Source of the DNA: Escherichia phage DCP548
Strand: one strand, 5' to 3'
Sequence record: PQ671645.1
DNA: 64,000 nucleotides
Shown here: positions 38,920 to 47,899 of the stretch, piece by piece
Numbering within the stretch: position 1 is the first letter of the stretch
How the letters are laid out: every line of letters begins with the position of its first letter
Notes under the pieces: generated by a model
What the model was told of the DNA's origin: nothing
Seen by the model: only the letters and a program-made list of their open reading frames with translations
Database searches by the model: none
Made by a program: the position numbers and the translations under genes

Positions 38920-39201
38920 CTATTTTTCTGAAGCGCCTGAAATATATTTTTCAAGACGTTGTTTCATCAGCGAGCCGTTCTTAGCGATTTCTTCCGGTTT
39001 ATCGCACATACGTAACAAGGCTTCAAGCTTAGCGATATCGCTGGTACGTTCAAATTTGCGAGTATCTATCTTACTAGCAAGTTCAGAAATACGTGCTAAT
39101 AGACTTTCGGCTTCAACCAAAGCTGCACCTAACTTAGTTGCAAATGTGTCAGTAGCTTCGTTAAGAATAGATTCTGATAAAAATTCACTATATGTTTTCA
39201 T
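38920..39201 (-). CDS. Capsid internal protein (CTS-bearing)
   Basis: Internal Met begins [11 protein letters not shown]; the track start is an upstream extension. Confidence 0.5.
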
Positions 39202-39686
39202 ATATACGCTTTCCAAGTTCCTGTTTTAAATGTTGAGATTACGCGTTTCGCGCGATTAGGTGTCTGACGATACCATTTAGATTGTGCTAGATTTACTGCC
39301 GCTTCATCCCAACGTTTCTGTTGAAGCATACGAAGAGAATTAGTAAAACCAGCGACGCCTGCTACACCCATTTGGAAGACCATATTGACCAATGCACATC
39401 GACGAACCGCATCTAAAGAATCATATACCGGTTTAAGTTTAACATTACCCAAGATTCCGCGAACAGCTTTATCAACGTCTTCGTTAAATAACTTTTCAGC
39501 CTCATCAAGGGTAATTGTACCGTTGCATTTACGCCCGATCATTCTGTCAAGTTCAGCTTTAGCTACAGCTAAAGACGGGTTCTTTGTTACTAAATGACCT
39601 ATGCCAATTGTCCAAAAGCCTTCAGTGTCTTTGTATAAAGTCAGTCTAAGACCTTCGTCATTACGAAGCATTTCAAATATATTCAT
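39198..39686 (-). CDS. e: Lysozyme (endolysin, T4 e-type)
   Basis: [27 protein letters not shown]; close match to T4 lysozyme. Confidence 0.95.
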
Positions 39687-39720: not shown

Positions 39721-40179
39721 TTATAGGATGGTAGTGAGCACCTTATATAATGATTTGCCCATTACATATTCCCACTGAGAAGGTTTAATTAAAGCGAATG
39801 CATCAAATTCAGGAATCTGTCGTCCGTCTGGGAACGTATGATAGGAATTACAAACACTGTTTCTGAATTGCTCGTGCTCTACAGGGATGGTATATAGGAA
39901 CAGATGAATATTCTTATTGTCTGAGTAATGATGTTCACCTAGGTCTTTCAGGAAGGCGGGGTCATATTGTGTAAACCCAGTTTCTTCTTCGCATTCACGA
40001 ATAGCGGCTTCGATAGGAGATTCACCGGGCTCGACACGACCTTTAGGAATATCCCAGCGATGAGCTAATGCACCTTTAGGACGAGAACCAGTTACACGCC
40101 CCATGAATAATTCTTTATCTTCGGTAAGGAAAATAATACCAGCTGATAATTCTTTCACTTTATTTTTCTTACTCATCAT
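39721..40179 (-). CDS. nudE: Nudix hydrolase
   Basis: Nudix box GRVEPGESPIEAAIRECEEETG; downstream of e as in T4. Confidence 0.8.
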   Translation of the reverse strand: MMSKKNKVKELSAGIIFLTEDKELFMGRVTGSRPKGALAHRWDIPKGRVEPGESPIEAAIRECEEETGFTQYDPAFLKDLGEHHYSDNKNIHLFLYTIPVEHEQFRNSVCNSYHTFPDGRQIPEFDAFALIKPSQWEYVMGKSLYKVLTTIL

Positions 40180-40405
40180 CTCGGTCCCATGATTTGGCCA
40201 TTAATTCGGACATAAATTCTTCAATGCGCGTTTCTTTAGATGGACTTTCACTATTAGAGACCGCAAGTTTGTAATCTGCAATAGGACAGAACATATCAAG
40301 GTCCATATTAAGGTCGTCTTTGATTTTTTCTTCTGACACATCTTTATCGTATGTGTACAGATAACTATCACATGATTCTGATTTAATGTAAATTGCTATA
40401 CTCAT
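40169..40405 (-). CDS. Hypothetical acidic protein
   Basis: Start at the internal ATG (MSIAIYIK) with SD. Confidence 0.35.
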   Translation of the reverse strand: MSIAIYIKSESCDSYLYTYDKDVSEEKIKDDLNMDLDMFCPIADYKLAVSNSESPSKETRIEEFMSELMAKSWDRDDE

Positions 40406-40893
40406 CTCAAATTCCTGCATTCGGTAATAAAACGTTCAACTTCATTATTCTTGGCTTTTATCTTGTCTTTATGTTCTTGTAAACTACTTTTAATAAGATT
40501 AATAATGATGCCTACAGTACCTCCACCAATTATACCGCCAATTATACTTACGATAGTAGATGCTAATAAGATAGCAATAATATCAACAAAACCGAAAGAA
40601 CTCACCTTAGTACTAAAAAACCACACTGATGGTACAAATATAATCCATCCTGTTATCCATTGACACTTATTGAAAAACTTTTCAAGCTCAGCTTGAGTTG
40701 TTCGTATTACTTCATCGATAGGTTGATAACCATTAATATGTCTGTTCACGATAATACCTGCTGGCTGGTCGATTTTAAATTCTTGGCAAATACGTTTCAC
40801 TAAGTAGGATGGACATCCTGTCCAATCCACTGAATAGTACGAAATACCTTCATTGCCGTCGTCAATATTAGACCAATATGTTTTGTTAATCAT
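40402..40893 (-). CDS. Membrane protein with C-terminal ERFITECR tail
   Basis: 163 aa; N-terminal soluble part, two hydrophobic helices, conserved C-terminal motif. Confidence 0.4.
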   Translation of the reverse strand: MINKTYWSNIDDGNEGISYYSVDWTGCPSYLVKRICQEFKIDQPAGIIVNRHINGYQPIDEVIRTTQAELEKFFNKCQWITGWIIFVPSVWFFSTKVSSFGFVDIIAILLASTIVSIIGGIIGGGTVGIIINLIKSSLQEHKDKIKAKNNEVERFITECRNLR

Positions 40894-41579
40894 TACCAGC
40901 CTTCCATAGGGAATTCCAGATAAACTTGAGCGTTGACACGAATTTCGTTGGTAATCTTTTTAACTCGGTCTGTATTACGAGATACACGTCCGAACCAACG
41001 CCATCCATTACTAATTGCACGAGAACCAGTGTGCCATGTTTGCCAATCAAACTGAAGAAGAGTACGGTCTGGAGCTTCCCATTTCTCTAGTTCGCCTTTT
41101 TCGATTTTTTCGAGGACTTCTTTGTGCCACTGGCGATAGATAAGTTCGCCATCAGGAATCTGACTGAACTCTGCAGTTCCTGTTGCAAAATGAGTAGGAC
41201 ACACATCAGCGTTAACAAGACCAAGAATATGTTCAGAATGGTAACGAGGGTTGTCATAATCAGGTTGTCCTGCAGTAATAAAGTGTTGACCAACCGGAAT
41301 ATCCGGGCGTGGTACATCATCATGGTGATAACCTGGGATAGCAGGGTACCAACCGGGCATCAGCATGTGGACTCGTGAATCAAATACAACCTGGTCGGTG
41401 TTCCAATCATCAGGCAAGTTCATGATGAAGCTGCGAGTAATAGGACCACCGTTATTATAAGCAAATTCTAAACTACAGTTGAAGAACATAGGCTCGTTTT
41501 TAATCTGGTCATTTTTAATCGCATGAGCAAAACCACCTACTGCACGAGCTTGACTATTAAACACTTTAGAACTATTCAT
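40893..41579 (-). CDS. Hypothetical protein; possible Fe(II)/2OG-dioxygenase-like fold (weak)
   Basis: Start moved to the ATG with SD (MNSSKVF...). HHDD ... H ... R pattern is only suggestive. Confidence 0.35.
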   Translation of the reverse strand: MNSSKVFNSQARAVGGFAHAIKNDQIKNEPMFFNCSLEFAYNNGGPITRSFIMNLPDDWNTDQVVFDSRVHMLMPGWYPAIPGYHHDDVPRPDIPVGQHFITAGQPDYDNPRYHSEHILGLVNADVCPTHFATGTAEFSQIPDGELIYRQWHKEVLEKIEKGELEKWEAPDRTLLQFDWQTWHTGSRAISNGWRWFGRVSRNTDRVKKITNEIRVNAQVYLEFPMEGW

Positions 41580-41580
41580 A

Positions 41581-41886
41581 TTATTTTCCTCGACATTCTT
41601 TAACAAAATTTTCTAAATCTGTTGATTCAATAGCTTTTTTACGAGCTTCAGCGTGTTCTTCTTCAGTTAATCTACGTTTAAACTTGACCCAAACATTATG
41701 GTCGAAACCTGTTGTCGCGTATAATAACAGAGCACCAACGAATAACAAAAACGGTGATAAAAATACACAACCAGGAACACCGTCCATGCCATAGGCCTTT
41801 TGTAATACTGCAACAGAAAGCACAGCATAAAAAGGTGATGTAAGTATCGTTAAAAGGCCAATTCGGTTGGTTTCGGATAATTTCAT
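41581..41886 (-). CDS. Small membrane protein with C-terminal ENFVKECR tail
   Basis: Start at the ATG with GAGGAG SD (MKLSETN...); the track start is GTG inside the upstream promoter cassette. Confidence 0.4.
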   Translation of the reverse strand: MKLSETNRIGLLTILTSPFYAVLSVAVLQKAYGMDGVPGCVFLSPFLLFVGALLLYATTGFDHNVWVKFKRRLTEEEHAEARKKAIESTDLENFVKECRGK

Positions 41887-41902
41887 AATATTCTCCTCAT
41901 GT

Positions 41903-41940
41903 TTAATAGGACTACTATAACATAGTCCTATCAGTTTGTA
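41903..41940 (-). promoter_or_regulatory. Early promoter with embedded 9-bp perfect stem-loop (PeSL-like cassette)
   Basis: Plus strand ataggacta-ctataaca-tagtcctat followed by tgtacac; in sense orientation -35 GTACAA/TTTACA-like and -10 TTATAG within the loop. Confidence 0.45.
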
Positions 41941-41943
41941 CAC

Positions 41944-42162
41944 TTATTTTGACATTTCTTCGATGTCACGACGATACCCATCACGAACTTCACGAAGAGC
42001 TTCAAGGCCACACATAGGCTCGATACCAGTAATGTGAACTTGATTAATCTGATACTCTACATCTTCTAACTGAGCGAAAACATAACGACGTTCTGCTTCA
42101 CAACCAGGTTTAGCTTTACCGAAACGTTTATTCAAAGTAGTCATTTTTATATCTCCATTCAC
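41944..42162 (-). CDS. Hypothetical protein
   Basis: 72 aa ORF. Confidence 0.35.
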   Translation of the reverse strand: MNGDIKMTTLNKRFGKAKPGCEAERRYVFAQLEDVEYQINQVHITGIEPMCGLEALREVRDGYRRDIEEMSK

Positions 42163-42224
42163 TCATTTGTTTTGATAGGTCTATAGTATCAACAACTACA
42201 GACCTTGTAAACTGTTTTGTGAAA

Positions 42225-43181
42225 TTATTTGAAAGGTTTTACCATATGAAAGTTTTGTTTGAAACGCTTGACGTAATCGTCGTGTCCTAAGCTTTGGTAC
42301 ATACTTACTACTTTGCTATAATTTTCCCAAGCGAACTCACGGAACCATCCTGATGTGATTGATGTACAGACCTTTTCAAGGGCCATCATAAAACTATCAC
42401 GTGGATGGATTTTAAAGTCGTTAGGAATCTGTGAACGTTCAAGAGCTAATACACAAGCTTCTTCATATACACCGGCTAATTTGACCATTTCTGGTAACGA
42501 TTCGAACTTCTCGCGTGAGGTCATGACTTCAGAACCGTCTTTCATATAAAATGTATACGCTGGACGGTCTGTTAGTGCAATGGCTTCATGAATAGTATCA
42601 TGGTCATACGTATAGATGTCATCTTTAAAGAACGCACTTTTAGAAGTGTCAAGAACTGGGTGAGCATAGTTCAAGGTTTCTTTCTGGCGTTTTAGCATAA
42701 TTTCAGTAAGTTCATCGTTCAGTGTAACACCTTTACCACGAAGATACTGAATATGGTTCATAGTCTTTAAAAAGAATGGATTATTTTTCTTGAAACGATG
42801 AGACATCTTAATTGCAAGACATATCTCAGGAGTTGCCCAATAAAACCCGTTCAAACGGTCTTTAGACAAATTTTTCTTGGCGTATTTTAAAAGGTCATAA
42901 GAAGACGTGAAATCTTCAGGAGTGAGTTCACCGACTAATTCACGGACATTAGTGATTGCCGGAACAATATATGCTTCAAAATGAGTTTCGCGTCCATTAT
43001 GGAAGCATTTGAAAACTTGGACATCAGGGTTATCTTGATGAACATATACACCCATCATTTGATTTTTGAATGCATTCCAAGAACCTTGGTCCGCAATAAA
43101 GTCCCAATCGCTATTTTTGATAGCGCTAGAATCAATAAGACCATGATAGTGAAGTGCACGAGAACCAATAACTAACATCAT
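42225..43181 (-). CDS. Nucleotidyltransferase-fold protein
   Basis: 318 aa; N-terminal IGSRALHYHGL-x8-DWDF (GS ... DxD minimal NTase motif). Confidence 0.4.
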   Translation of the reverse strand: MMLVIGSRALHYHGLIDSSAIKNSDWDFIADQGSWNAFKNQMMGVYVHQDNPDVQVFKCFHNGRETHFEAYIVPAITNVRELVGELTPEDFTSSYDLLKYAKKNLSKDRLNGFYWATPEICLAIKMSHRFKKNNPFFLKTMNHIQYLRGKGVTLNDELTEIMLKRQKETLNYAHPVLDTSKSAFFKDDIYTYDHDTIHEAIALTDRPAYTFYMKDGSEVMTSREKFESLPEMVKLAGVYEEACVLALERSQIPNDFKIHPRDSFMMALEKVCTSITSGWFREFAWENYSKVVSMYQSLGHDDYVKRFKQNFHMVKPFK

Positions 43182-43205
43182 AATATTTTCCTCGGATTAA
43201 TTAAC

Positions 43206-43445
43206 TTAAATTTCACGACATGCGATATTATATTCATCCCAGAGGTCGTCATGTGAAGCCTCTACCAATGGAACGATTGTACCGTTTATGTCTTCATTAT
43301 AAGGGCAAATTGTACAGTGCGCATCTTCGAATCGGATGCCTTTGTGTTCAGATTTTTTATAACGCATATCAAATATCTTTGCAAACTTTTCACGAGTAAT
43401 AGTTTTAGCAACTACTTCGGTTCCGATACTTTCGTAATAAATCAT
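43206..43445 (-). CDS. Hypothetical Cys-containing small protein
   Basis: Start set at the ATG with GGAG SD (MIYYESIG...). Confidence 0.35.
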   Translation of the reverse strand: MIYYESIGTEVVAKTITREKFAKIFDMRYKKSEHKGIRFEDAHCTICPYNEDINGTIVPLVEASHDDLWDEYNIACREI

Positions 43446-43473
43446 TGTAGACTCCATTTAATTTGATAGGGCT

Positions 43474-43503
43474 ACTATAACATAGCCCTATCTTGTTGTA
43501 AAC
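43474..43503 (-). promoter_or_regulatory. Early promoter (-35 TTTACA, 17-bp spacer, -10 TATAGT) with 9-bp stem-loop
   Basis: Stem atagggcta/tagccctat differs from the 41903 copy by a compensatory base-pair change. Confidence 0.5.
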
Positions 43504-43507
43504 TGTT

Positions 43508-43705
43508 TTAGCAAGAATAACTAGATGATACCCAGCCTTGAACAGTAATACTATTATTTGATAACGAGATTGCGTCCTGGAGATTCAGACCCGCATTATC
43601 TTCAATCCACAATGTAACTTCTTCACGCTCTTCGGTTGCAATCTGGAACAGGTTTTCCAGGGCAGCTACTGCCGTACGTACAGCACAATCTAATTCACGA
43701 GACAT
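43508..43705 (-). CDS. Small protein with C-terminal GWVSSSYSC motif (paralog family member)
   Basis: 65 aa. Confidence 0.4.
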   Translation of the reverse strand: MSRELDCAVRTAVAALENLFQIATEEREEVTLWIEDNAGLNLQDAISLSNNSITVQGWVSSSYSC

Positions 43706-43714
43706 ATGATTTCC

Positions 43715-43987
43715 TTAACAAGTGTGAGAAGATGCAACCCAACCACCATCTTCAAGGCTCAAGTTGTAGTCGTATTGGTAAACGTCAGCCCATTCAGCAT
43801 AACCGTTTTTTGTACAACGTTCAAGATCGGCTTTAAGATGTCCTGGTGAATGATAGGTTCCACCCATGCCATAAGCTGGATACAAGTCGAATGTTGTGTT
43901 TTGTTTATCAGCAATTTCTTTGGCAGCCTCAATAGCTGCATAGATTTTTGCTACGGCTTCAGCCAGTTCGGTTTGTTCTTTAGACAT
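43715..43987 (-). CDS. Small protein with C-terminal GGWVASSHTC motif (paralog family member)
   Basis: 90 aa. Confidence 0.4.
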   Translation of the reverse strand: MSKEQTELAEAVAKIYAAIEAAKEIADKQNTTFDLYPAYGMGGTYHSPGHLKADLERCTKNGYAEWADVYQYDYNLSLEDGGWVASSHTC

Positions 43988-43996
43988 AATGATTCC

Positions 43997-44302
43997 TTAG
44001 CACAACGCAGAAGACGAAACCCAAGCACCTTCAGTAATAATGTAACCATTACCTTCACGCTTAACATCGCCACCATTATTTTCAATTTCATCTTTCATCC
44101 ACTGGGATACGATTTCACCCTTAGGATAATAAGTACGACCACTACCATAATCACCTACAGAAAATGATACGGCATATTGGTCTGCGATCTTTGTTGCTTC
44201 TTCTTCGATACGTTCAGCTTGATTCAGAAGTTTATAAATTGCATCTGAAGCGGATTTGGCATCATTAAACTCTGGTACTTTAATTTCAATAATCTTACTC
44301 AT
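43997..44302 (-). CDS. Small protein with C-terminal GAWVSSSALC motif (paralog family member)
   Basis: Start at the ATG with AAGGA SD (MSKIIEIKV...). Confidence 0.4.
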   Translation of the reverse strand: MSKIIEIKVPEFNDAKSASDAIYKLLNQAERIEEEATKIADQYAVSFSVGDYGSGRTYYPKGEIVSQWMKDEIENNGGDVKREGNGYIITEGAWVSSSALC

Positions 44303-44657
44303 TTCTACATTCCTTAATAAAGTTTTCGATTGTTTCATTTTCACGTCTAGCTAGGAGTTCATTATAACTAATCATTTGAGAAGCGTAAACCTTTTTATTT
44401 TTCTTGTTATGGTTTATAAAATCGTAGTAAAAATAGACTACAGTACAAAAGGATGCGATGGATGCAAAGGCTTGGGTATACCTTAAGTCCTGCCATTGGT
44501 CTGTGAATCCACCAGTGTTCCCTATAAATCCTAACACAACGCCGTCAATAAGAAATCCAACTAATCCAAAGGCAAATCCCATGCCAATACTCATAATAAA
44601 AATTAGAATGTTCTCACCAAGAGAAGGCCATACGGTTAAGAGTTGAGGCTTTTGCAT
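44295..44657 (-). CDS. Membrane protein with C-terminal ENFIKECR tail
   Basis: 120 aa; hydrophobic helices; conserved tail. Confidence 0.4.
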   Translation of the reverse strand: MQKPQLLTVWPSLGENILIFIMSIGMGFAFGLVGFLIDGVVLGFIGNTGGFTDQWQDLRYTQAFASIASFCTVVYFYYDFINHNKKNKKVYASQMISYNELLARRENETIENFIKECRNE

Positions 44658-45031
44658 CTTATTTCCTTAACAAATTCCATAGCTTCTTCATATTCATACT
44701 TTTTAACAGCTTCATCATACTGAGCTTGGGCTTTTGCGCACTGAACTTTCCATTCTCTTAATCGGGCTCTGTGATGACGTCCTTGGTACCAATATCCCAC
44801 CCAGTTAATAGGCATTAATAAAAACGGTACAATAAGTGGTGCGACGAACATTAATGAAAATGCTGCATCAGACGATATAACTTTATTGGAATCTAAAATA
44901 GCTCCTATAATCATAAAGATTAAAAATGCTAAAGCTAAAATAGGACCAAACAACACTTCATTAGGAATTAATTTACGTTTGTATTCGTATGCCCAGGGCT
45001 TAATTGGCATGTATAGGGTTGGCTTTGACAT
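44636..45031 (-). CDS. Membrane protein with C-terminal EFVKEIRCK tail
   Basis: Start at the internal ATG (MSKPTLYMP...). Confidence 0.4.
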   Translation of the reverse strand: MSKPTLYMPIKPWAYEYKRKLIPNEVLFGPILALAFLIFMIIGAILDSNKVISSDAAFSLMFVAPLIVPFLLMPINWVGYWYQGRHHRARLREWKVQCAKAQAQYDEAVKKYEYEEAMEFVKEIRCKSLNS

Positions 45032-45617
45032 ATTCTCTACATTCCATAATAAATTGCTCAAGGATTAAATTGTTAGTGAAATTAGGACTAACAACCATGG
45101 TTTCATAAAGCGCATCAATAGCACTTAAAGCATCAACTCTCTTAAGCAAAGGCTTGCCTTCATACATAGTTTCAGAATCGACGATTAAAGTGAAGTAGTA
45201 TTTTTTATTATTGACCAGAACTTCTGTATCAATATAAAACATGTTAGACCTTAAAAGCTTGTCTCTAAAGCCTACGTAATCATCTGAACGTTCACTGATA
45301 TAGTCCCATTCAGTGTTTAAACAACAAACAGACCATGTAGGAGCAACGAAATCAGTGAATCTAATATCATGGTCTGCAACTAGTTTAGCAATAGCTCCGA
45401 TATCATGAATCATAATACCTGGGGCTAATAAAGATTTTCGGTTATTTGCATATTCAGTTGTCTCATAAGAAGACGACCAGTACCATTTACGTCCAGTTGC
45501 AACATATCGTAATGAATCAACTAAAGACGTAGGTGGATTTACCTTATCTCGGAACTCTTCGAACATTGAGTCAATATCATTATTTTGGTTTCGCATGTTA
45601 ACTCCTTTATTATCCAA
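45000..45617 (-). CDS. Hypothetical protein with C-terminal EQFIMECR tail
   Basis: 205 aa, soluble. Confidence 0.4.
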   Translation of the reverse strand: MDNKGVNMRNQNNDIDSMFEEFRDKVNPPTSLVDSLRYVATGRKWYWSSSYETTEYANNRKSLLAPGIMIHDIGAIAKLVADHDIRFTDFVAPTWSVCCLNTEWDYISERSDDYVGFRDKLLRSNMFYIDTEVLVNNKKYYFTLIVDSETMYEGKPLLKRVDALSAIDALYETMVVSPNFTNNLILEQFIMECREYVKANPIHAN

Positions 45618-45645
45618 AAGGAGGACCGGAGTCCTCCGTATTATT

Positions 45646-46239
45646 TTATTTCAAAGAGTTAATATATTCTTGTACATCAGCAGAAGTGGTTTCGACACCA
45701 GCCGGAGTGCCATTGAACGTTTCAACACGAGTCAGAGTGTCTTCGATATCAACCTTAGTCAGTGCAGCGATTTCAATTACATCATCAGCCGTAGAGATAC
45801 CAAGGGCATTGGCTGCTCGAGTTTCACGAATGTATTCGAGTTTGATTGCCAGATTCTGACGAGCATCATCAAGTTCAACCACCTTACGAGCAATTTCAAT
45901 TCGCATAGCGGCATACCCGTCAGCTTTTGTATTAAGTTGTTCGGCAGTTCGACGATACAGAAGACCAAGCTTAGCATGCATGGTAACATCTTGTCCTTCA
46001 GCCAGGAGCTTACGAATTTCACGTTCCTTAGAAGCGGCTTGCTTGTTCTTTTCATTAACAAGTTCGCGAATACGTTTTTCTTCATTAATAGATTTAACAG
46101 AAGCCGTTTTTAGTTCTTTGATTTGGGTAATCAACTTATCTGCAGCTGCGTTATACTGTTCTTCGACAGTCAGATTTTTAGCCATAGCAGTACCCAGTTT
46201 AGTGCGGATGAATTCAACAAGTTTTTTCAGTGTGTTCAT
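45646..46239 (-). CDS. Coiled-coil protein (possible PspA/IM30-like; weak)
   Basis: Start at the ATG with AAAGG SD ([10 protein letters not shown]...); helical heptad-rich sequence. Confidence 0.35.
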
Positions 46240-47434: not shown

Positions 47435-47899
47435 TTATTTAATTTGTTTAGCAGACCAGATACGGTCTTTAATAAGTTTTTGGATATCTTCAACATACTC
47501 AAGGCTATGAGCGTGAGGATTATCTTTGAAGCTATGTGCTCGGGCCAGTTTCTGGCCTTCTGTTTTGATTACTAAAAGCTCTTTAAGAATTGCTTCATAC
47601 TTAGAAATAATTCCTTTGGCGATATTTTTTTCTTGAGCGGCTTTAGGGTCCGCTTTTGGCGCAGGTGCTTTACCTGTAGCTTTCTGGAACAATTCACCTG
47701 ATGCAGCTAGGCTTTTAAAAACTCGGCTAACAGTATTAGCATTAGTAAAACCTTCGGCTTTAAAATCTCTAATAAAACGGAAACGTTCTTCATCAGAGGC
47801 GTCTTTGTAAGAATATTTACCTGCTTGAATTGCTGCAATCGCAGCGGCTTTTACATCTGAACTAGATTGTTCAGTCAAAAATTCAGCGTATGATTTCAT
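47435..47899 (-). CDS. Capsid-targeted protein (CTS-bearing; candidate injected effector)
   Basis: N-terminal MKSYAEFLTEQ; 154 aa. Confidence 0.5.
   Translation of the reverse strand: MKSYAEFLTEQSSSDVKAAAIAAIQAGKYSYKDASDEERFRFIRDFKAEGFTNANTVSRVFKSLAASGELFQKATGKAPAPKADPKAAQEKNIAKGIISKYEAILKELLVIKTEGQKLARAHSFKDNPHAHSLEYVEDIQKLIKDRIWSAKQIK

Follow-up and report, generated by a model that had tools for sequence, protein, structure and literature searches.

The 64,000-nucleotide stretch of Escherichia phage DCP548 analysed here (PQ671645.1; "the window" denotes this whole stretch) is DNA of a Mosigvirus, that is, an RB69-like, T4-type phage. In this report, we focus on its 40.1–45.7 kb region, which shares 97% identity with Escherichia phage HY126 and some 95–96% with APCEc01, JS09, and other Mosigvirus phages, and in which every gene is carried by the minus strand. 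The original prediction, made from the letters alone, had singled out five open reading frames (ORFs) ending at 40402, 41581, 44295, 44636, and 45000, whose products carry similar tails of the type F-(I/V)-x-E-C-R, and had left open whether these represent a C-terminal peptide module shared by otherwise unrelated proteins, a conserved nucleotide element of translationally coupled junctions, or both. All five ORFs are present on the minus strand with these ends. Comparison with the annotated T4 genome assigned four of them as orthologues of e.2, e.3, e.4, and e.5. The genes and their neighbours are as follows (aa, amino acids; TM, transmembrane; tails are given up to the stop codon).

39721-40179: nudE, downstream neighbour of gene 1
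40402-40893, minus strand: gene 1, full-length T4 e.2 orthologue, 163 aa, PHROG 2203, tail ...VERFITECRNLR
41581-41886, minus strand: gene 2, absent from T4, 101 aa, two TM helices, PHROG 9798, tail ...LENFVKECRGK
44295-44657, minus strand: e.3 orthologue, 120 aa, two TM helices, PHROG 2330, tail ...IENFIKECRNE
44636-45031, minus strand: e.4 orthologue, 131 aa, two TM helices, PHROG 2604, variant tail ...MEFVKEIRCKSLNS
45000-45596, minus strand: e.5 orthologue, 198 aa, soluble, precomputed Pfam match PF26876, tail ...LEQFIMECREYVKANPIHAN
45646-46239: e.6, upstream neighbour of e.5, 88% identical to T4 e.6

Gene 1 codes for an N-terminal soluble domain, followed by two predicted TM helices and a basic tail. 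The tails as first quoted contain the motif itself but are incomplete, since it lies 2, 2, 3, 6, or 11 residues before the stop and not at the very end. Four of the five tails are canonical; in the variant tail of e.4, Ile takes the place of the Cys, and a Cys follows two residues further on. The pattern F[IV].EC[RK] has four matches in the six-frame translation of the window versus a mean of 0.1 in shuffled sequences, so that chance can be excluded, and all four lie within long ORFs of the coding (minus) strand, at most 11 aa from the stop. In an all-against-all BLASTP comparison, any two of the four proteins with ECR tails aligned best through 9–16 aa of the tail, and the variant e.4 aligned via its tail with gene 2 only. 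Together with the assignment of the five proteins to five different PHROGs families, unannotated save for a generic "membrane protein" label on gene 1, this bears out the view that the carriers are otherwise unrelated. No Pfam or NCBIfam match was obtained for the five proteins or for e.6 with a Pfam set that lacks PF26876, and e.6 has no solved relative in the PDB. PF26876, the T4 e.5 family, is a precomputed match on all 14 homologues of window e.5 (46–94% identical to it), and concerns the whole protein, not the tail motif.

Distribution of the tail among T-even-type phages

Scans of IMG/VR with e.5 and gene 1 alone returned only near-identical relatives, and diversity emerged via a neighbouring 318-aa protein, through which 30 syntenic loci were retrieved. 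The core pattern was taken as F-(I/V)-x-x-C-R, and as [F/W]-[I/V]-x-x-C-R-(G/K/R) in the wider set. Over 32 loci (697 ORFs, 90,941 aa), 73 matches to the core pattern fall in the final 26 residues of a protein, compared with six elsewhere. The carriers form 26 BLASTP clusters, one of which (cluster 25) was a doubtful match and was dropped, and 21 groups are left after profile–profile comparison of the bodies without their tails. About half of the carriers are proteins of 84–197 aa with two predicted TM helices, the rest being soluble proteins of 90–290 aa, and all are annotated only as hypothetical or membrane proteins.

Motif-bearing families were found in nine groups of T-even-type phages, in every case between e.6 and nudE, an interval that constitutes a hyperplastic region, with a gene content varying by phage group. 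Each enterobacterial group has three to seven ORFs with an ending of the wider pattern. Besides Enterobacter and Kosakonia phages, the motif is present in the following phages (a tail followed by an ellipsis continues).

T4: e.5, EKFVKECREYVKAITIPSK; e.3, KEFVIDCRKIK; e.4, MKFVKESRCKSQS; NNFITECRKLK
JS98 and VR5: FIEECRK, FIKECKS
CC31 and PG7: FINDCRKARK, FITECRGKNEIQS, FISRCRIKR, FIRMCRKN...
Klebsiella phage Marfa: WIKGCRK, WVKGCRK, FIKHCREAVNG, FIKYCRGKHVS
Pectobacterium phage PM2: FIKNCRR, FIKSCRK
Yersinia phage fHe-Yen9-01: FIDQCRR..., FISECRGR, FVTYCRGNK
Aeromonas phage 44RR2.8t: FVDYCRRTASKK, on the gene adjoining e.6

Outside the e.6–nudE region, the only C-terminal match in the window and the 149 kb of T4 analysed is the thymidine kinase tail YVSLCRKHW (window 32230, T4 59763, both on the minus strand), which we take as a chance match of the loose pattern in a conserved enzyme.

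Three loci deserve a separate description. The annotated T4 e.2 (102 aa) represents just the N-terminal portion of a protein of about 165–195 aa (L033, 18472-18960, minus strand), whose TM segment and C-terminus (...FIEMPWRLRRQQKIFDEKKYAQNLNNFITECRKLK) are found further on in two other frames, as far as the nudE start, and this continuation matches the intact orthologues of VR5, JS98, and the window. The split could reflect a pseudogene, a sequencing error, or frameshifting. A 45-aa ORF ending in NNFITECRKLK before T4 nudE was also considered as a recombination relic, an idea that we rejected, this ORF being the C-terminus of the frameshifted e.2. In a close relative with proteins 95–100% identical (L002, 3287-3373; L045, IMGVR_UViG_2974739009), most of e.3 has been lost, and a remnant of 33 codons (...SQMISYNELLARRENETIENFIKECRK) retains the tail and the RBS (ribosome-binding site) of the next gene. 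Finally, a 114-aa protein of viral contigs of unidentified affinity (L046, 11803-12147, and also L047 and L048), encoded beside a 249-aa ORF, contains ALENFIKECRGL internally, 42 residues before its stop; this could be a chance occurrence or the same helix in another context.

Conservation as peptide and relation to the next gene

Codon identity between families was compared at each position of the four core codons, over about 25 families.

Phe codon: 1.00, 0.85, and 0.43 at positions 1, 2, and 3
Ile/Val codon: 0.56, 1.00, and 0.42
Cys codon: 1.00, 1.00, and 0.50
Arg codon: 0.50, 0.92, and 0.36

Third positions are thus random-like, with identities of 0.36–0.50. For Cys, TGT is used 33 times and TGC 28 times, and for Arg, both codon families are drawn upon (AGA 20, CGT 16, AGG 9, CGA 7, CGC 5, CGG 2). 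Comparing synonymous with non-synonymous change in homologous tails, as had been suggested, gave a clear outcome: the F, C, and R codons differ between orthologues by 81 synonymous and 0 non-synonymous changes, compared with 87 and 265, respectively, at the flanking and x positions. Such a ratio of 81:0 requires selection on the protein. Ascertainment bias was removed by re-collecting family members through similarity of their bodies, regardless of the motif. It was missing in three out of 75 members, all three being frameshifted fragments, so that no intact orthologue has lost it. In families with just 8–9% invariant columns, F, C, and R are invariant within an otherwise unconserved tail.

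Positions outside the search pattern are also biased: of 25 families, 22 have L, F, V, or I at position −3, 12 have E at −2, 12 have N or D at −1, and 18 have G, K, or R at +1, the position after Arg. The consensus is therefore hydrophobic(−3)-E(−2)-N/D(−1)-F-(I/V)-x-x-C-R-(G/K/R), followed by 0–15 further residues. Short linear motifs (SLiMs) are brief conserved peptides that unrelated proteins carry in a terminal region which is otherwise unconserved or disordered. We consider it highly probable that the five tails are a genuine motif of this kind, kept by selection at the protein level, and not an RBS element. To that extent, the peptide-module proposal stands.

The five tails of the window do overlap the Shine–Dalgarno (SD) sequence and the start codon of the next gene, as originally described. 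The motifs and junctions are located as follows, and the RBS annotations of a curated relative, phage 55, coincide with these sites.

40414-40431, minus strand: gene 1 motif, TTT ATT ACC GAA TGC AGG (F-I-T-E-C-R); next ATG at 40405
40413-40416, minus strand: gene 1 junction, SD AGGA, from the Arg codon and the next base; RBS annotated at the same place in phage 55
41590-41607, minus strand: gene 2 motif, TTT GTT AAA GAA TGT CGA (F-V-K-E-C-R); next ATG at 41579, 2 nucleotides (nt) past the stop
41587-41591, minus strand: gene 2 junction, SD GAGGA, spanning the Arg and Gly codons
44304-44321, minus strand: e.3 motif, TTT ATT AAG GAA TGT AGA (F-I-K-E-C-R); next ATG at 44302
44311-44315, minus strand: e.3 junction, SD AAGGA, from the Lys and Glu codons
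44657-44674, minus strand: e.4 variant motif, TTT GTT AAG GAA ATA AGA (F-V-K-E-I-R), then TGC (Cys); e.3 ATG at 44657
44664-44668, minus strand: e.4 junction, SD AAGGA
45036-45053, minus strand: e.5 motif, TTT ATT ATG GAA TGT AGA (F-I-M-E-C-R); e.4 ATG at 45031

From the first base of the Phe codon to the next ATG, the distances are 26, 28, 19, 17, and 22 nt for gene 1, gene 2, e.3, e.4, and e.5, respectively. With regard to e.4, phage 55 annotates a later start (MPIK), and the MSKP start is favoured by T4 and by sequence conservation. The e.5 and e.4 genes overlap by 32 nt read in two frames (window 45000-45031; T4 68662-68693), and 25 nt at this junction (GGAATGTAGAGAATATGTCAAAGCC) are identical in T4 and in the window, the e.5 proteins being only 47% identical.

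Alternative explanations of the tails

A tail lying on the next RBS invites the reading that its bases serve initiation or coupling of the downstream gene, as an SD, an enhancer, or a repressor operator, with the peptide as a by-product. Of 62 distinct junctions, 34 have an SD that overlaps the 18-nt core, and the choice of Lys codon follows the SD distance: Lys-Glu is AAG-GAA, creating the SD AAGGA, when the start lies 17–22 nt away, and AAA-GAA at 28 nt or more, in a handful of independent cases. This last trace, weak as it is, is all that is left of the proposal that both constraints operate. However, over the 62 junctions the start lies 19–121 nt from the Phe codon, in frame +1 at 34 and +2 at 28 of them, at odds with the fixed spacing of about 5–10 nt expected between an SD or coupling element and the start codon. 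The SD is found at two different sites inside the motif (codons x1-x2 giving AAGGA or GAGGA, the Arg and +1 codons giving AGGA, CGAGG, or AGAGG) and elsewhere outside it, and four families end ahead of a spacer of 29–79 nt, which in Aeromonas phages holds an early-promoter-like sequence, instead of a coupled gene. Conservation is confined to coding positions, always in the frame of the upstream gene and not independently of it, and a purine-rich SD does not explain F-I and C. The RNAs of the five window junctions fold no better than shuffled ones (z from −1.5 to +1.7), and the junction RNAs have no Rfam match. Moreover, the gap is at most 12 nt at 53 of the 99 same-strand junctions of the window; a tail on the next RBS is therefore the rule and no special feature. 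The overlap is a by-product of very tight gene packing, and purine-rich motif codons (K-E, R-G, R-K, R-R) frequently, though not invariably, double as the SD. It had been envisaged that homologues might keep a nucleotide element and shift frame freely; it is the reverse that was found, the peptide being kept while nucleotides, spacing, and frame drift, and the conserved junction element is not supported as an account of the tails, its probability being very low. A similarly low probability attaches to a nascent-chain regulatory peptide of the SecM, MifM, or VemP type, in which the motif would pause the ribosome and membrane insertion would relieve the pause, thereby controlling the next gene. 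The architecture is alike, with a conserved C-terminal peptide a few residues before the stop, the next RBS adjacent, and often N-terminal TM segments engaging the membrane. Unlike in these systems, no mRNA hairpin that a stalled ribosome could open sequesters the downstream RBS, and the spacing is too short, as the start is just 4–13 nt away and would be covered by a ribosome pausing on C-R. In addition, the downstream genes are mutually unrelated or absent, and soluble carriers exist. Least credible of all is that the tail is a C-terminal version of the capsid-targeting E-F-(I/L)-x-E or of a cleavage site of the prohead protease gp21, the rule for which is (L/I)-x-E. The capsid-targeting sequence (CTS) of IPI, IPII, IPIII, and Alt, M-K-x-Y-x-E-F-(I/L)-x-E, lies at the N-terminus of soluble head proteins and is removed by gp21. 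There are likenesses: both are short terminal peptides constituting the sole conserved part of diverse, fast-evolving phage proteins, indeed the CTS is the only conserved feature of the highly diverse T-even internal proteins (PMC3012670). They share a genome neighbourhood, as internal-protein-like genes with MKTYSEFL or MKSYAEFL N-termini stand beside the region, and partially resemble each other (E-F-I-x-E in the CTS, N-F-I-x-E in the motif), the window tails reading F-I-x-E followed by C. In contrast with the CTS, the motif is at the opposite terminus, about half of its carriers have two TM helices and cannot enter the prohead core, Cys-Arg is invariant, and the Glu that would form the gp21 site is not conserved.

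Two further explanations concern the origin of the tails. One holds that tail and downstream RBS form a junction cassette spread by illegitimate recombination or gene conversion as genes of this variable region are exchanged, in the manner of PeSL (promoter-early stem-loop) cassettes, which combine these elements at gene boundaries of T4-type hyperplastic regions and for which modular shuffling has been proposed (PMC2839356, PMC4122927). Like them, the motif is a conserved short sequence located at the boundaries of genes in a variable region of this type, and PeSL-like elements lie nearby. Moreover, the T4 e.3 and e.2 tails have TGCAGGAAA(A)TTAAA(A)TGA in common, 25 nt of the e.5/e.4 junction are identical between T4 and the window despite the divergence of e.5, and the 33-codon remnant of e.3 has retained its tail with the RBS. 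Nevertheless, PeSL are non-coding DNA or RNA signals between transcription units, whereas the motif is coding, conserved at the amino-acid level, and placed inside operons; none of the five junctions has a hairpin or an intergenic early promoter, the nearest signal being a weak promoter-like match (9/12) at 40392-40364, about 10 nt downstream of the gene 1 junction and within the next gene. Random-like third positions and differing Arg codon families between carrier families imply that the DNA is not shared, and the 25-nt identity falls in the stretch read in two frames. Furthermore, an exact-pattern scan of IMG/VR for DNA coding for ENFIKECR did not turn up the same tail DNA attached to any other body: its yield was orthologues of gene 2 and e.3, chance matches (one out of frame in a 761-aa gene, one within a large ORF), and the internal occurrence in the 114-aa protein mentioned above. 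Since the 81:0 ratio demands selection on the protein in any case, we regard a recombination linker as improbable. The other explanation is common descent alone, the carriers being strongly diverged paralogues in tandem that descend from one to three ancestral genes (for a tail protein with two TM helices, a soluble protein like e.5, and a small soluble protein), with the tail as their last recognisable part. The genes are in tandem and share one architecture, two TM helices and a charged tail, and profiles of tail-less bodies link e.5 with cluster 0 (94–95%), e.3 with cluster 15 (93%), cluster 19 with cluster 20 (94%), and cluster 17 with cluster 24 (94%). Against this, the 21 groups remain unlinked, PHROGs, which cluster by remote homology, keep the five window proteins apart, and the soluble carriers have only the tail in common with the 2-TM ones. 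As a complete explanation, common descent appears unlikely; it is partly true as regards origin, where it is compatible with a selected peptide motif, and a constraint on the tail is needed all the same.

Putative function and other signatures of the region

As for what the peptide motif does, the conserved residues would form one face of an amphipathic alpha-helix, positions −3, 0, +1, and +4 (Phe being 0) making up an i, i+3, i+4, i+7 stripe, with basic residues after it. Four of the five window tails have a higher hydrophobic moment at 100 than at 160 degrees, and residues 177–192 of e.5 are helical in an AlphaFold2 model of low confidence (mean pLDDT 59, from an alignment of 13 sequences). 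In the membrane proteins, 25–45 highly charged, basic residues separate the second TM helix from the tail, which by the positive-inside rule would be cytoplasmic, like soluble e.5. The most likely role of the tail would then be that of a docking or assembly helix, by which rapidly evolving early proteins would be recruited to one common phage or host partner; alternatively, it might bundle the co-translated proteins with each other. C-terminal docking motifs on unrelated proteins are known from the gp45-clamp-binding tails of T4 gp43, gp33, and gp55, as well as from the FtsZ C-terminal peptide. The likeness lies in a short, hydrophobic, helix-forming C-terminal peptide with an i, i+3, i+4 pattern on unrelated proteins. 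Carriers of the known motifs converge on one partner, which for the F-I-x-x-C-R tails is putative. The motifs differ in sequence, F-I-x-x-C-R as against L-D-F-L-F/Y or I-P-A-F-L-R-K, and the carriers here are non-essential ORFans. A docking or assembly function is a tentative proposal, with somewhat less than even prospects, its conceptual precedent in the same phages being the N-terminal CTS of the internal proteins (PMC3012670); the explanation as a whole, combining the peptide motif with such a function, seems to us slightly more probable than its contrary.

A number of points weigh against it. The family counts derive from shallow alignments of small, rapidly evolving membrane proteins, and some families may be very diverged paralogues. 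The Glu of the originally described F-(I/V)-x-E-C-R is not conserved beyond a subset: it is E in 8 of 25 families, and otherwise Y, S, D, G, M, N, or R. The e.4-type tails (FVKEIRCK, FVKESRCK, FIKNMRGK, FLKEIRK, FIKNVRRK, FIESARKK) keep F, I/V, and R and replace the Cys by I, S, M, V, or A, for which reason Cys chemistry may not be essential, and this position may serve mainly as a small or hydrophobic contact rather than as a reactive thiol. The binding partner is hypothetical, and the confidence of the e.5 model is low, as stated. e.6 is a constant neighbour of the motif genes, and 1,102 phage records carry it; however, it is not obligatory, as the four motif genes of CC31 stand without an e.6 next to them, and these 1,102 records include none of the Karamvirus type. 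We had also considered e.6 as a PspA-like receptor for the tails, a guess without sequence support, which was abandoned given that CC31 keeps its motif genes without e.6.

The variable regions of T4-type phages harbour hundreds of ORFan genes, which are thought to act in host adaptation or counter-defence. In phages of Escherichia, Klebsiella, Enterobacter, Pectobacterium, Yersinia, and Aeromonas, some twenty of these families now prove to have one strictly conserved C-terminal peptide, a sharing that probably implies convergence on one partner or complex. A bolder and rather doubtful form of the proposal is that the tail is a portable C-terminal "address tag", an amphipathic helix with an invariant Cys-Arg through which rapidly diversifying early proteins, both small inner-membrane proteins and soluble ones of the e.5 kind, would connect to a single conserved hub of host or phage origin. 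If this is true, the tag would be the cytoplasmic or membrane counterpart of the capsid-targeting sequence, constituting a new phage SLiM–hub system, and would offer a single experimental handle on some twenty ORFan families. The 10-residue peptide could be used as one bait for pull-downs or structure prediction, and could assign a pathway to all families together. More generally, amino-acid motifs at gene ends of compact genomes can be mistaken for RBS elements, as both constraints share the same codons. No description of a shared C-terminal motif was found in the open-access literature, where gene-name queries were noisy and a prior description is thus not disproved.

The region and its flanks present several other features. 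PeSL-like elements lie on the minus strand at about 41900-41942, 42183-42211, and 43465-43502, with early-promoter-like hexamers TTTACA or TGTACA and, 17 nt away, TATAGT or TACTAT. They match the published PeSL cassettes (PMC2839356, PMC4122927) and split the region into separate units; the stem-loop at 43465-43502 was confirmed by a terminator scan, and those of the other two sites were seen by eye only. A gene coding for a 66-aa protein (41944-42144) is, with its flanks (41881-42235), 91–95% identical to Tequatrovirus phages, where it stands beside a thioredoxin gene, and the rest of the region has no such match. It seems that a cassette flanked by PeSL-like elements was recently exchanged laterally. 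Two ORFs flanking the region (38920-39216 and 47435-47899, minus strand) are internal-protein-like, with capsid-targeting-like N-termini, and related phages have several genes of this type, with unrelated bodies, beside e and denV.

A second, distinct C-terminal signature is found in the same region. Three tandem ORFs (43508-43705, 43715-43987, and 43997-44302, minus strand), one of them belonging to PHROG 4882 and two to PHROG 899, end in G-W-V-(S/A)-S-S-x-x-C, Cys being the last residue. Related phages possess two to six such terminal-Cys genes in tandem, with endings such as WVSSSSEC, WFTSSMSC, WYPSSC, WLSSSDMC, and NSSRC. Lastly, between the e.6 stop and the e.5 start, a GC-rich hairpin at 45620-45637 is followed by a T-run (GGAGGACTCCGGTCCTCC TTTTGG, minus strand) and resembles an intrinsic terminator, though the genes appear co-oriented in one block.

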